Assembly (NCBI GenBank): GCA_000004695.1
Contig: CM000151.3
Span: 4,000,001-4,064,000, forward strand
Origin: Dictyostelium discoideum
Taxonomy: Eukaryota
DNA length: 64,000 nucleotides
Reading direction: 5' to 3'
In this document: positions 12,481-22,919 of the stretch, piece after piece
Layout of the letters: each line of letters starts with the position of its first letter
Numbering within the stretch: the stretch's first letter is position 1
Notes under the pieces: generated by a model
What the model saw: only the letters and a program-made list of their open reading frames with translations
Database searches by the model: none
What the model was told of the DNA's origin: nothing
Translations under genes and position numbers: made by a program

Positions 12481-15400
12481 TTAAAACCAAGGTTGAATAT
12501 TTAATTTTTGATAAAGATCATTTGCAGTTGAATTTGCTATTGATAATTTATCAGGATTTTCTTCAATTTTGATGATTTCAGCCCAACATAATGCTTCTTC
12601 CAATTGTAATTGTCTTGCTTTTGATTCTTTAACACTTTTATATAATAAAATCAAAGCTTTCTTTTTGAATGATTGTAATTCATTAGAGTTTGTTGAAACA
12701 CTACTATTACTTGATAAATCAGAGGCTTGACTTGCAGAAAGACTTTCATTAAAACTTGATTTTCTACTACTACCACTATTACTTCTACCACTACCACCAC
12801 TGAATGAAACTGCAGAGATCATAGTTTTCTTATACTTTTTACAGAAATAAGTAATTCTATTTAAAAATAAAATGTAGAGACCATATAGACGTAAATAAGA
12901 TGGATAACAAAAATCTGGACCACCCTTTAAACAAGTTAACATTGTTCTTAACCAAACTTCAACAGTTTTATGATCACGTCCTGTTGAATCTTTAAAACTC
13001 TTAAATTTAGAATTATTATTTAAAGATGATGGAGAAGATGGTGGTGGTGGTGGTTGTTGAGGTGGTGGTTGTTGTTGTTCTTTTTTTTTAATCAATTCAT
13101 TGATTTCAGAAATATCAGAAGCATCATTTATAATTGATTCCTTTAAATTTATGAAATTATCATCAAATCCCATTAAATCAAATTGACTATTAACTGTTGG
13201 TATTGTTGTTGTTGCTGCTGTTGATGATGACGATGATGATGATGATGATGATGTTGGATTATCGTTATATAGATTTTTAAAGAATTCATCATTTAAAATA
13301 AAAAGTAAAACACGAGCCATTAAAATTAGTGATAAACTTATTTCTGTTCCATATGCTGGTTTATCTGAATTTATTAAATCCATAGCTCTTTGAATTGATA
13401 CGATTGATTTTTTACTTTTACCTTTTGAGAAATAAATAACTGATAACAATGCTTTATTAAATATTTCTTCTGTACCTTCTGGACTTGGTCTAACCAATAA
13501 ACTATTCTTTAGTTGAATATGAGCTTCCTTAATTTTACCTTGATAAATTAAACAATAAGTTGAATATTGATAGAATGAGAATCCACATGGAAAGAATGGA
13601 TAATTAGTATGTGGTGTCAATAGTTCAATAGTTGGTGATTGAACCATATATCCTCCTTCTACTTGTCCATCCTGTTGTTGTTGGTGGTGTTGTAAATGTG
13701 ATAAATTTTGACTATGACGATGATGTTGTTGTTGTTGTTTTGGTAATGTCAAACGAAGTGGTATTCTAGGTGGTACCATTTCATATATTTTTTGTAATGT
13801 CAATGGTTCATTTGGTGTTTGTGGTTGTTGTTGTTGTTGTTGTTGTTGTTTTTGTGATTGTTGAGGTGGTTGTTGTTTTTGTTGTGTTTGTTGTTGAGGT
13901 CGTGGTTGATGTTGTGTTGATTGTTGATGTTGTTGTGATTGATTATTAGTATTATTAGTATTAGTATTATTATTATTATTATAACTATTATTACTATTAT
14001 TACTATTATTATTATTATAATTATTATTATTATTATTATTTTCATCATCTTTTTTTTCAATTTTAATTGTTCCTTTAATTAAAATTTGAAATTGATTGAA
14101 ACCATAGAAATCATCAAAAACTGAATTTACGAAACCAAATGATTGAATTTCATCATATTGTTTTTTATAATTCTTTTGATTGATTAATAATCTATAGATG
14201 ACAGAAGAAAAGTTAATTTGTTCACCTAAACCTAATAAGAATAAATAATCGCAAATTAAAATATTACAAAAGTATAAGTCACCTCTAAGTAATTGTTGTG
14301 AGAGGTAAACAAAGAGGTTGAATTCGAATTCTGCCTTTGTAAATAAATCTAAATTTAAAGAGAATTCCAATGCTGAAAGATCCAATGATTGAGTAACTTT
14401 TGGCCAAGAACATTGATTTAAATGACCTAATGAATTGGATGACAATGAATACATTAATAATGAACCAGCATCATGGTCGTCTACGCTCATATAAGCAGAT
14501 AGCAAACAATCGACCAATCGTTGAGAATGTTTGGCATGAGATATTGAAACTTTAGTAACCAATGAAAACACTGATAACACCATTGACAATTGTGATAAAC
14601 AAATCGATAGTTGTGGTAAAATCAATGATGATGGATATTGAGCGATTGGTTGAAGTTTTTCAGTGGATTTGGAAGCACAATAAGCTGCATAATTCAACAT
14701 TGTAGAACGACTATACAATTCAACCAATTTACAATAGATACTAGAAATCTCTACAACCTCTTGAATATCTGGTGTATTGTTGGTAAACTTTGGTTGAGTT
14801 TTATATTGTTTCTTTGAAGAGATTGCTTTCTTTAAACTCGATTTTGCATGTTGAGTTAAAATTGAAAATGTCATTGAAGTTGACATTGCCTTTGGTAATG
14901 GCTCTCCCATAATACTTAACGCTTGTAAAAGATATGATTCACCTTGTGATAAATAACCAATAGATAAAAATGCTTCACCAATTCTTTTAAATGCTTTTGA
15001 ATATTTTATTTTCTCTTCTTTATTCAATGTAAATGTATCTTCAATTTTATCAAAAAAGTAACCATTATTAATATTATTATTATTATTATTATTATTATTA
15101 TTATTATTATTATTATTATTATTATTATTATTATTAATATTTGACGATGACGATGATGATGATGATTTAAATGATAATGGTTTAGTTGTTTTTGTTGGTT
15201 GTATTTGAATTGAATTATTTTTAAATAATTGAGATTCTTTAAAAGTAAATTTAAAATCAAAACTAGTTGAATCTGGTTGAATTAAATTATTTCTTTTTGC
15301 ACGGAAAATTCCAAGATATTCTGAATAATATTTAATGATATCCAAGTATTTACCAAGTTTTAAACAATGTTGAGCAGCATCCCAAGTTGATTGTAATGCT

Positions 15401-21400: not shown

Positions 21401-22919
21401 ACATTACTATATACAGAAGATAATTTACTAAAATCGAAATCTTTACTAAGTTTTGATCTTGAAAGTTGTAATTTAAGTGGAAATGATTGAATACCTGAAG
21501 CTATTTCATAATTTCTCATCATATTATACATTCCTAAAAATCCATCACCACCTGTAAGTAATAACCATGTTTTATTATCACCTCCTATACTACCTAAAAA
21601 AACTTCGCCAAATCCAACATAAATATTAAATAGTGGATCTGTAATTTGTTGTTGTTGCTGTTGTTGTTGTTGTTGACTATTATTTGTCGATATATTTATA
21701 TTTATACCTGAATTTGTTGATGAAAATGATGATTGTTTTTGTTGTTGTTGTTGTTGTTGTTGTTGTTGTTGTTGTTGTTGTTGTTGTTGTTGTTGTTGTT
21801 GTTGTTGTTGTTGTTGTTGTTGTTGTTGTTGTTGTTGTTGTTGTTGTTGTTGTTGTTGTTGTTGGCTATAAAATTGTGATGATGGTGGTGGTGATGTTGA
21901 TGTCTGTACATAATTTTGTTGTTTAAATCTTTCTTTATTCGATGAAGATGTATTTATATTTAATTTTTCTCTTTCTCTTTCTTTTTGCTGTTCAATTTCT
22001 ACTCTCTCTCTAAAAGAATTTGGATTTGATTTAGCTATTGGTGAAGATATAAATGGTGTCATATTAAACTGTGGCGTAAATGAATCATAATCAGAATGTT
22101 GAATATTTATATTTGATGATGATGATGGCGTTGGTATAGGCATACTATTAGAACTATATGATTGTTCATTCGTATTATTATTTCGGATATTATTAAAACT
22201 ACTATTGCCACTATTATTATTATTATTATTATTATTATTATTATTATTATTAATGTTTATATTATTACTATTTATATTATTACTATTTACAAATAATTCA
22301 GTTTTTCCATTTTCTTCTTTTGAAGAAATTAAATAAAACATTGCTCTAATTTTTTGTGCGCATCTTATTGCTCTTCTTGATAAGAATGAAAATATTTGTT
22401 CACCACTTTCTTTATCACTATTATACCAGACTGCTAAAATCTCTTCACCATTAAAATTTTTTAAAACATCACCTCCTTTTTATTTTGGGAAAAAAAAAAA
22501 AAAAGAAAGATTTTTTGGTAAATTGAGGGATTGGAAAAAAAATTGAAAAAAAAATGGAAAAGGAAGAAAAAAAAAAAAAAAAAAAAATGAAAAAAAAAAT
22601 AAAAAAAAATAAAAAAAAAAAATCTTGGGATCGAGAAATAAAAAAAAAAATAAAATTTACCTTCTTCAGCTATAATTCTAAATGATTCTTCTAAAAATTT
22701 TAAATAATTTGATTGTTTACAATAACTTGAACCTGCAATTGAATAAAATTTTATACATAATACTGGCATCATAGAAATTGATATATCGGGAGCTCTTTCA
22801 TCTTGTGGTTTTAATTTCATAATGTATTTTTGTACAATAGTTGAAGGTATATGTGAAGCTAGTTTTTGCACTCTTTTTGGTGAGTAATTACCATTAAGTA
22901 TATGTTGAATATCTTTCAT
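12481..22919 (-). CDS. Giant soluble-adenylyl-cyclase (sAC/ADCY10)-like protein, ~3,415 aa: complement(join(12481..22475, 22671..22919)). Two class-III cyclase homology domains lie at the N-terminus (C1 ~22919–21490, interrupted by the intron and a polyQ insert; C2 ~20480–20060), followed by a STAND-type P-loop NTPase (GMGKS encoded at 19282–19296) and a TPR-like C-terminal region, with very long Q, QH and N tracts.
   Basis: ATG at 22919 with a stop 5 codons upstream. From memory, exon 1 aligns with the human sAC N-terminus: MKDIQHILNGNYSPKRVQKLASHIPSTIV…APDISISMM…LKFLEESFRIIAEEG ~ MNTPKEEFQDWPIVRIAAHLPDLIV…FVDISGFTAM…LVEILNYHISAIVEKV. A GTAAAT donor lies at 22670 and an …ataaaaag acceptor at 22476 (195-nt intron). 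Exon 2 continues GGDVLKNFNGEEILAVWYNS ~ GGDILKFAGDALLALWRVE. The C1 end reads EVFLGSIGGDNKTWLLLTGGDGFLGMYNMMRNYE. C2 reads SLTFVVVHLFNLSF…RGAFVICALGFSSFTD…KVICGMVGNKMRSDYTFIGDKLHYS ~ QVTIVFVNLMF…KGCSFLCVFGFPGEK…IVFCGIVGHTVRHEYTVIGQKVNLAAR. The P-loop is LIEADIGMGKSSIITEV. A single ~10-kb exon stays open through (CAA)n runs. Confidence 0.8.
16823..17560. repeat. Coding (TTG)n / (TTGGTG)n / (TTGCTGGTG) microsatellite block on the + strand, giving polyQ and (QH)n / (QQH)n repeats in the minus-strand cyclase gene.
   Basis: A pure (TTG)~23 run lies at 16823–16893. From 16996 a long series of TTGGTG hexamers and TTG runs is visible (the protein reads HQQHQQHQQ…QQQQ). Confidence 0.9.
18428..18600. 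repeat. (ATT)~55 with a few ATTGTT variants on the + strand, coding poly-N in the giant gene. A second (ATT)~26 run lies at 15062–15138.
   Basis: Period-3 runs are read directly and are in frame with the 12481..22475 ORF. Confidence 0.9.
21741..21864. repeat. Pure (TTG)~41 run on the + strand, which is (CAA)n = polyQ inside the C1 cyclase domain of the giant gene.
   Basis: An uninterrupted trinucleotide run is read directly from the sequence. Confidence 0.95.

Follow-up and report, generated by a model that had tools for sequence, protein, structure and literature searches.

Does the giant gene on the minus strand at positions 12481-22919 of a Dictyostelium discoideum DNA window encode a further nucleotidyl cyclase, the known cyclase sgcA, or a protein of another kind? 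The window is the whole stretch that we analysed, 64,000 nucleotides of AT-rich DNA with 16-35% GC (GCA_000004695.1, CM000151.3, 4,000,001-4,064,000). An exact protein look-up assigned it to NCBI assembly GCA_054883475.1, contig JBTAPE010000033.1. A review from 2025 counts five Dictyostelium cyclases, namely ACA, ACB, ACG, GCA and sGC, and contains no sixth one related to soluble adenylyl cyclase, sAC (PMC11988041). The literature that we searched describes neither this protein family nor a further Dictyostelium gene of the sAC-like or pseudo-cyclase type. Our analysis indicates that the gene probably encodes a conserved pseudo-cyclase, in which the cyclase fold is combined with an intact STAND ATPase and catalysis is lost, and which would act as a signalling scaffold or switch and not as a sixth cyclase.

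An initial annotation of the locus had proposed one gene of about 10 kb at these positions, and the spliced translation of the minus strand bears this out. Joining 22919-22661 to 22475-12481 yields 10,254 nucleotides with 3417 codons and one stop, which is terminal. The gene is composed as follows:

12481-22919, minus strand: whole gene with two exons and a 3417-residue product, stop codon at 12481-12483, spliced translation with a single terminal stop
22661-22919, minus strand: exon 1, residues 1-86 and the first base of G87, with the N-terminal helix, strand beta1 and helix alpha1 of the first cyclase-homology domain (C1)
22476-22660, minus strand: intron GTAAAT...AAAAAG, GT..AG type, 185 nucleotides, phase 1
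12481-22475, minus strand: exon 2, open over 9,995 nucleotides

The intron donor first proposed, at 22670, is off by 10 nucleotides and breaks the frame; the correct donor lies at 22660, and the length of the product changes from 3,415 to 3417 residues. Splicing rebuilds the motif EEGGD, which is conserved in the ortholog family. This motif is unsplit in the genomic DNA of Heterostelium album and Acytostelium subglobosum, which lack the intron, and is interrupted at the same codon in Tieghemostelium lacteum. An exact protein look-up with the 3286-residue open reading frame of exon 2 gave no recorded match.

The order of the domains is that of the sAC family, with tandem C1-C2 cyclase-homology domains, a STAND P-loop NTPase and a helical/TPR-like tail:

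22740-22763, minus strand: strand beta1 of C1, VLCIKFYS, with K57 at 22749-22751 in the column of sAC D47
22426-22661, minus strand: beta2-beta3 motif of C1, GGDVLKNFNGEEILAVW, spanning the intron, with E97 at 22444-22446 in the column of sAC D99
21460-21645, minus strand: second half of C1, starting with DPLFNIYVGFGEVFLGSIGG, residues 364-425, with N370 at the sAC K144 column
20719-21204, minus strand: end of C1 and C1-C2 linker, residues 511-672, with the conserved motif LLWCHIP
20080-20502, minus strand: C2 cyclase-homology domain, residues 745-885, with D795, T869, H876 and K880 in the columns of sAC K334, T405, N412 and R416
18685-19413, minus strand: STAND P-loop NTPase of the AAA_16 type, residues 1108-1350, with the motifs LLGRANE, PYSIW and LLNPVL
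19279-19308, minus strand: Walker A motif EADIGMGKSS
18778-18810, minus strand: Walker B motif VIILEDIQYMD
12484-16809, minus strand: C-terminal helical/TPR-like tail, residues 1976-3417, colinear with the tails of bacterial sAC-type proteins

C1 begins at about residue 14, and the N-terminal helix KLASHIPSTIV pairs with RIAAHLPDLIV of sAC. Direct similarity to human sAC (ADCY10) is very weak: in a phmmer search of all PDB sequences, ADCY10 was the sole match, over C2 (E-value 2e-4, 22.9 bits), and in C1 the pairing of GGDVLKNFNGEEILAVW with GGDILKFAGDALLALW stays below the threshold. The Pfam family PF00211 (Guanylate_cyc) gave no match, neither in the window protein up to an E-value of 1 nor in three orthologs up to 0.1, while the same family scores 54-69 bits in one bacterial relative and one Diphylleia relative. 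For a single profile model, this is formally an outcome that the initial annotation had named as refuting it, although profile-profile comparison together with the predicted fold does establish the homology. The trimmed C1-C2 profile of the family was compared with a reference set of human sAC residues 1-469 (PDB sequence) and 113 bacterial relatives, which resulted in an hhalign probability of 99.9% (E-value 4.2e-36) over 368 columns, colinear over sAC 10-420. For the tail, the family and the bacterial proteins align over 699 columns with a probability of 100% and an E-value of 1.2e-56.

The NTPase motifs hhGRxxE, Walker A, PYxxW, LLNxVL and Walker B LEDxxxxD are all common to the family and the 113 bacterial relatives; they are intact in the window protein, and GKS of Walker A and ED of Walker B are invariant in the alignment. 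Pfam TPR_8 reaches only an E-value of 0.12 in the window protein, so that individual TPR motifs are not significant. An AlphaFold model of the compact Synstelium ortholog, calculated from a 52-sequence alignment, had a predicted local distance difference test (pLDDT) score of 81.8 and a predicted template modelling score of 0.83; a 7-sequence alignment had given an unusable model (pLDDT 41.8) and was replaced by the larger one. In a Foldseek comparison of this model with the PDB, the best 24 matches were all human sAC catalytic cores (E-value about 3e-19, template modelling score 0.55-0.60), followed by membrane adenylyl cyclases. Hence, the sAC-like succession of C1-C2, P-loop STAND domain and helical tail in the initial annotation is backed by hhalign, the motif alignment, the model of the ortholog and Foldseek.

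How far does this family extend? An exhaustive HMMER scan of 1.8 billion representative sequences with residues 730-1375 as query returned 1339 relatives. The top five matches (1879-2466 residues, E-values 1e-125 to 9e-39) come from Heterostelium album (PPL_11288), Synstelium polycarpum, Acytostelium subglobosum, Tieghemostelium lacteum (DLAC_05401) and one further eukaryote (EukProt), and their annotation goes no further than 'hypothetical' or 'Orc1-like AAA ATPase domain-containing'. All five begin 10-35 residues before C1. Orthologs from D. discoideum or D. purpureum appeared neither in word-indexed nor in representative protein searches, the word-indexed search also having missed the known dictyostelid orthologs. 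The next matches are bacterial 'class 3 adenylate cyclase / TPR' proteins of about 1350 residues and a protein of Diphylleia. By block, the identity of the window protein to its orthologs is 50-54% in C2, 43-55% in C1, 47-52% in the NTPase and 21-50% in the tail. Judged by these alignments, the gene represents a paralogue within the soluble adenylyl cyclase family that is present throughout the dictyostelids.

The bacterial sAC-type proteins, found in Chloroflexi, cyanobacteria, Planctomycetes and others, carry two PF00211 domains, AAA_16 and TPR, and are by score the nearest relatives outside the dictyostelids; their colinearity extends over the full length, tail included. The family scores higher against them (about 75-105 bits) than against human sAC. 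In contrast to the window protein, they match PF00211, contain no low-complexity inserts and keep the catalytic residues D47, D99, N412 and R416 at 99-100%.

The fate of these residues decides whether the protein can be a cyclase. In human sAC, the metal ligands are Asp47 and Asp99, the pyrophosphate receptor is Lys144, and the ATP base is recognised by Lys334; Asn412 has been connected with the release of product, Arg416 is in contact with the alpha-phosphate, and bicarbonate is bound by Lys95 and Arg176 (PMC12867704). The corresponding columns are listed below, with conservation among the 113 bacterial relatives and the family residues in the order window, Heterostelium, Synstelium, Acytostelium, Tieghemostelium and P0007:

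sAC D47: D in 100% of the relatives; K/R/K/K/K/K in the family
sAC D99: D in 100%; E/A/E/E/Q/Q
sAC K144: K or R in 87%; N in six of six members
sAC K334: K in 76%; D/D/E/K/N/N
sAC T405: T in 87%; T/V/V/V/V/I
sAC N412: N in 100%; H/H/H/H/H/N
sAC R416: R in 99%; K/Q/H/K/Q/N
sAC K95: K in 81%; K/Q/Q/Q/S/N
sAC R176: G in 33%, S in 25%, R in 5%; Y/N/S/Y/N/N

Seven functional positions are thus replaced in the window protein, namely D47 by K, D99 by E, K144 by N, K334 by D, N412 by H, R416 by K and the bicarbonate residue R176 by Y, and the replaced catalytic positions mostly vary among the orthologs. The initial annotation had considered the first metal-binding Asp retained, pairing APDISISM with FVDISGFT. 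However, strand beta1 is VLCIKFYS and K57 falls in the column of the invariant Asp both in the hhalign comparison and in two MAFFT alignments made independently with 45 and 113 canonical relatives, and since all three agree, the former pairing is a chance resemblance or misalignment. The Glu that had been proposed at the second metal position is found there as E97, with an hhalign posterior of 0.94 for the sAC Asp99 column.

Could the protein nevertheless be active as a nucleotidyl cyclase whose metal site is unusual, with Glu97/Glu98 and perhaps Asp45 as metal ligands and cAMP, cGMP or some other cyclic nucleotide as product? This was one of the two possibilities left by the initial annotation. 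E98 is conserved in every family member that has the segment, the E97 column is acidic in three of five, and D45 of the PDI motif is kept in five of six; the fold and many of its structural Gly, Trp and Arg residues are retained as well. Against this stand the number and the nature of the changes, which go far beyond one Asp-to-Glu exchange. The first metal-Asp column holds a basic residue in all six members, the Asn and Arg that place the ribose and the alpha-phosphate are invariant in the 113 relatives and lost here, the D99 (E/A/Q), K334 (D/E/K/N) and R416 (K/Q/H/N) columns vary freely, and PF00211 does not match. We consider an active enzyme improbable for these reasons, and the residue losses favour the other possibility, a 'non-canonical or regulatory' cyclase.

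As a separate candidate, the pseudo-symmetric second site, for which C2 would contribute the Asp residues and C1 the Asn/Arg pair, was inspected as the active site and rejected: strand beta1 of C2 has a His at the Asp position, and GGDGFLGMY, the counterpart of the Asn/Arg helix in C1, lacks both the Asn and the Arg.

Alignments and model show a cyclase fold that is kept with its catalytic machinery gone, and the window protein presumably makes neither cAMP nor cGMP.

The loss of the active site raises the question of whether the whole gene is on its way to a pseudogene, with cyclase domains that erode in the absence of a maintained function. The lost and variable catalytic residues would fit such a decay, as would the expansion by about 1000 low-complexity residues, 495 of which lie in runs made up solely of Q, N, H, T and S. 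These insertions are located as follows:

21646-22287, minus strand: low-complexity insert in C1, residues 150-363, first N-rich and then a run of 42 Q, between helix alpha3 and strand beta4
21733-21864, in the minus-strand gene: (CAA)44, encoding the 42-Q run
16810-18606, minus strand: low-complexity insertion of about 600 residues, poly-N from (AAT)~55 followed by a Q/H-rich part, between the NTPase core and the helical domain
18456-18619, in the minus-strand gene: (AAT)~55, encoding poly-N
16822-17680, in the minus-strand gene: Q/H tract

The window protein exceeds its orthologs (1879-2466 residues) by about 1000-1500 residues, and nearly all of the excess consists of poly-N/Q/H insertions in loops and linkers: a surface loop of C1 (150-363), the C1-C2 linker and the block of about 600 residues past the NTPase core, a site where the insert is far shorter in the orthologs. 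These roughly 1000 additional residues are insertions of the D. discoideum poly-Q/N/H type. The block past the NTPase core separates the STAND core from the helical domain, and the conserved motifs on both flanks are intact.

In contrast to what decay would predict, the 10.25-kb frame has stayed intact despite the many unstable triplet repeats within it; as the initial annotation had stated, the tracts are real and the coding sequence of 10,254 nucleotides stays open through them. The family has been maintained in the major groups of dictyostelids; with 50-55% identity, the cyclase domains belong to its best conserved blocks, and the structural Gly, Trp, Pro and Arg residues common to real cyclases are invariant. 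Intron position and gene neighbourhood are conserved too. Across the Dictyostelia, the identity of the predicted dead C1 and C2 domains equals or exceeds that of the NTPase, in keeping with purifying selection on a fold that has lost its catalytic residues. A decaying gene is thus very improbable, and the conservation argues that the gene is functional.

Is it then sgcA, either directly or as a mis-modelled gene whose long N-terminus is encoded by an upstream exon that had escaped notice? The two share the Dictyostelium genome, the giant size and the sAC-like architecture. In sGC, residues 1-1010 form a segment before the cyclase domains that is necessary and sufficient for localisation to F-actin, and the protein is an active guanylyl cyclase (PMC8684759). 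Such an N-terminal segment of about 1000 residues is absent here, and the orthologs in five other species start next to C1 as well. There is also no room for it: an in-frame TAA lies 3 codons before the ATG, and the upstream spacer of 1988 bp, with 14% GC and no long open reading frame, ends at a divergent RasGEF gene. The upstream stop of the initial annotation therefore exists, at a distance of 3 and not 5 codons, and its statement that the 2 kb further upstream lack an open reading frame agrees with our result. Moreover, the guanylyl cyclase activity of sGC is irreconcilable with the missing catalytic residues of the window protein. Among the best 150 of the 1339 matches (at least 74 bits), no protein of sgcA length from other dictyostelids was found, while bacterial proteins are present, and A. 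subglobosum is listed with a separate sgcA ortholog (PMC4334915). Taken together, an identity with sgcA is hardly conceivable, in agreement with the initial annotation; the distinction is one of architecture, with the features of sGC taken from its published description.

Compared with full-length ADCY10, the window protein has the same order of C1-C2, P-loop STAND NTPase and helical/TPR tail, and ADCY10 is the best structural match of the ortholog model. It differs in that the catalytic and bicarbonate residues are replaced and in that it is more than twice as long, owing to the low-complexity inserts. The closest functional analogy is provided by sGC, which belongs to the same group of organisms, shares the sAC-like topology and has a function in pseudopod orientation that is independent of its catalytic domain and dependent on its AAA-ATPase domain (PMC8684759).

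What might such a protein do? A first indication comes from its neighbourhood, where the upstream spacer separates two genes in head-to-head orientation:

22920-24907: shared divergent intergenic region of 1988 bp with 14% GC, between the sAC-like gene and the RasGEF gene
24908-28022, plus strand: RasGEF gene with a 929-residue product in the public record, divergent from the sAC-like gene

The same pairing is present in four of the four genomes compared, those of the window, Tieghemostelium, Heterostelium and Acytostelium. The comparison covered 22920-28022 of the window and 4651-8000, 2914-8000 and 2501-8000 of the loci L003, L002 and L004, respectively. The catalytic exon of the RasGEF gene is 59-68% identical to the orthologs (E-values 1e-117 to 1e-125), with colinear weaker matches further upstream, and the remaining neighbours of the sAC-like gene differ among the four genomes. 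Because the head-to-head pair is conserved in all four, shared regulation, for example by a bidirectional promoter, is suggested, and possibly a shared pathway or functional link.

STAND proteins in general have an N-terminal output domain, a central NTPase and C-terminal repeats. By analogy with them and with the AAA-ATPase-dependent function of sGC, we propose that the conserved pseudo-cyclase may be a STAND switch or scaffold driven by nucleotide, in which the tail would serve as the sensor and the NTPase as the switch, and the dead C1-C2 module would form a protein- or ligand-binding output that replaces catalysis. More speculatively, it may share a pathway with the divergent RasGEF gene, which would echo the catalysis-independent role of sGC in pseudopod orientation.

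The pseudo-cyclase module might instead be a ligand sensor and not the output, binding ATP/GTP, bicarbonate or another small molecule in its remodelled cleft and gating the STAND NTPase allosterically. Some residues that have replaced those of the catalytic cleft are partly conserved (K/R at D47, N at K144, H at N412, and E98), and a structural precedent is found among the fold matches. PDB 6yii from Pseudomonas aeruginosa has the class III cyclase fold and is called an ATP-binding protein, not a cyclase, by its depositors. It is a distant match (Foldseek rank 35, template modelling score 0.35) without the STAND/TPR module, and nothing points to a pseudo-enzyme ancestor shared by the two. Among the orthologs, the Lys and Thr that contact the base are variable, and the bicarbonate residues are not kept, as is evident from the K95 and R176 columns. 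We consider a sensor role unlikely, yet more plausible than an active enzyme, sgcA or a decaying gene.

A more specific version would describe the protein as an ancient pseudo-sAC, a sixth and hitherto unrecognised member with cyclase homology, whose dead C1-C2 module and live STAND ATPase form a switch that works with the head-to-head RasGEF. Such a switch could couple Ras activation to sGC in chemotaxis, or titrate the partners of sGC. We regard this version as rather doubtful.

Several points weigh against a conserved pseudo-cyclase with a scaffold or switch function. The hhalign posterior for pairing K57 with D47 is a middling 0.41 (0.5-0.7 along the strand), and that for R416 is 0.33; for K57, both MAFFT alignments and the strand of the AlphaFold model (ortholog residues 36-51, pLDDT about 95) agree with the assignment. 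Glu sometimes stands in for Asp as a metal ligand, and non-canonical chemistry is compatible with the sequence alone. Pfam AAA_16 scores 27.1 bits in the window protein (E-value 6.9e-6), which is below the gathering threshold of 32.6, in contrast to the orthologs with 37.8-48.7 bits. The structural model is that of an ortholog, and canonical cyclases dominate its alignment, so that the match in fold partly depends on the homology evidence. Finally, the scaffold function and the role in a RasGEF pathway are drawn from synteny and analogy. The conserved pseudo-cyclase still appears to us the probable explanation.

The other genes of the window were also recorded. Downstream of the sAC-like gene, the neighbours at 4221-6226, 8517-9014 and 10059-10556 (minus strand) and at 217-1665 (plus strand) encode Kelch repeats, the histone-acetyltransferase N-terminal domain Hat1_N, a C2 domain and zf-C3Hc3H, and they have no counterpart among the genes downstream of the orthologs. 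Beyond the RasGEF gene, the plus strand carries a gene for a 565-residue FNIP-repeat protein (29040-30737; PF05725 in the public record), followed by an open reading frame of 1191 residues without a Pfam match (30791-34366). Further along are four open reading frames of 376 residues, by appearance a tandem/inverted actin cluster:

47769-48899, minus strand: 376-residue open reading frame
52062-53192, minus strand: 376-residue open reading frame
53689-54819, plus strand: 376-residue open reading frame
55916-57046, plus strand: 376-residue open reading frame

One of them was translated and is actin, which we take to be identical to the major actin of D. discoideum.

Dictyostelium is a reference organism for cAMP and cGMP signalling, and our alignments indicate that beyond the five reviewed cyclases the Dictyostelia have a sixth protein, of the sAC type, which is conserved throughout the social amoebae and apparently kept for a non-catalytic job. 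The family can therefore serve as a natural experiment in which cyclase activity has been removed, so that the role of the STAND-TPR part, poorly understood in sAC-type proteins, can be studied by itself. If the protein indeed acts as a switch together with the RasGEF, the sAC family would have its first described pseudo-enzyme counterpart. It is also a candidate partner for the catalysis-independent functions of sGC, and its pairing with the RasGEF gene provides a testable pathway hypothesis.

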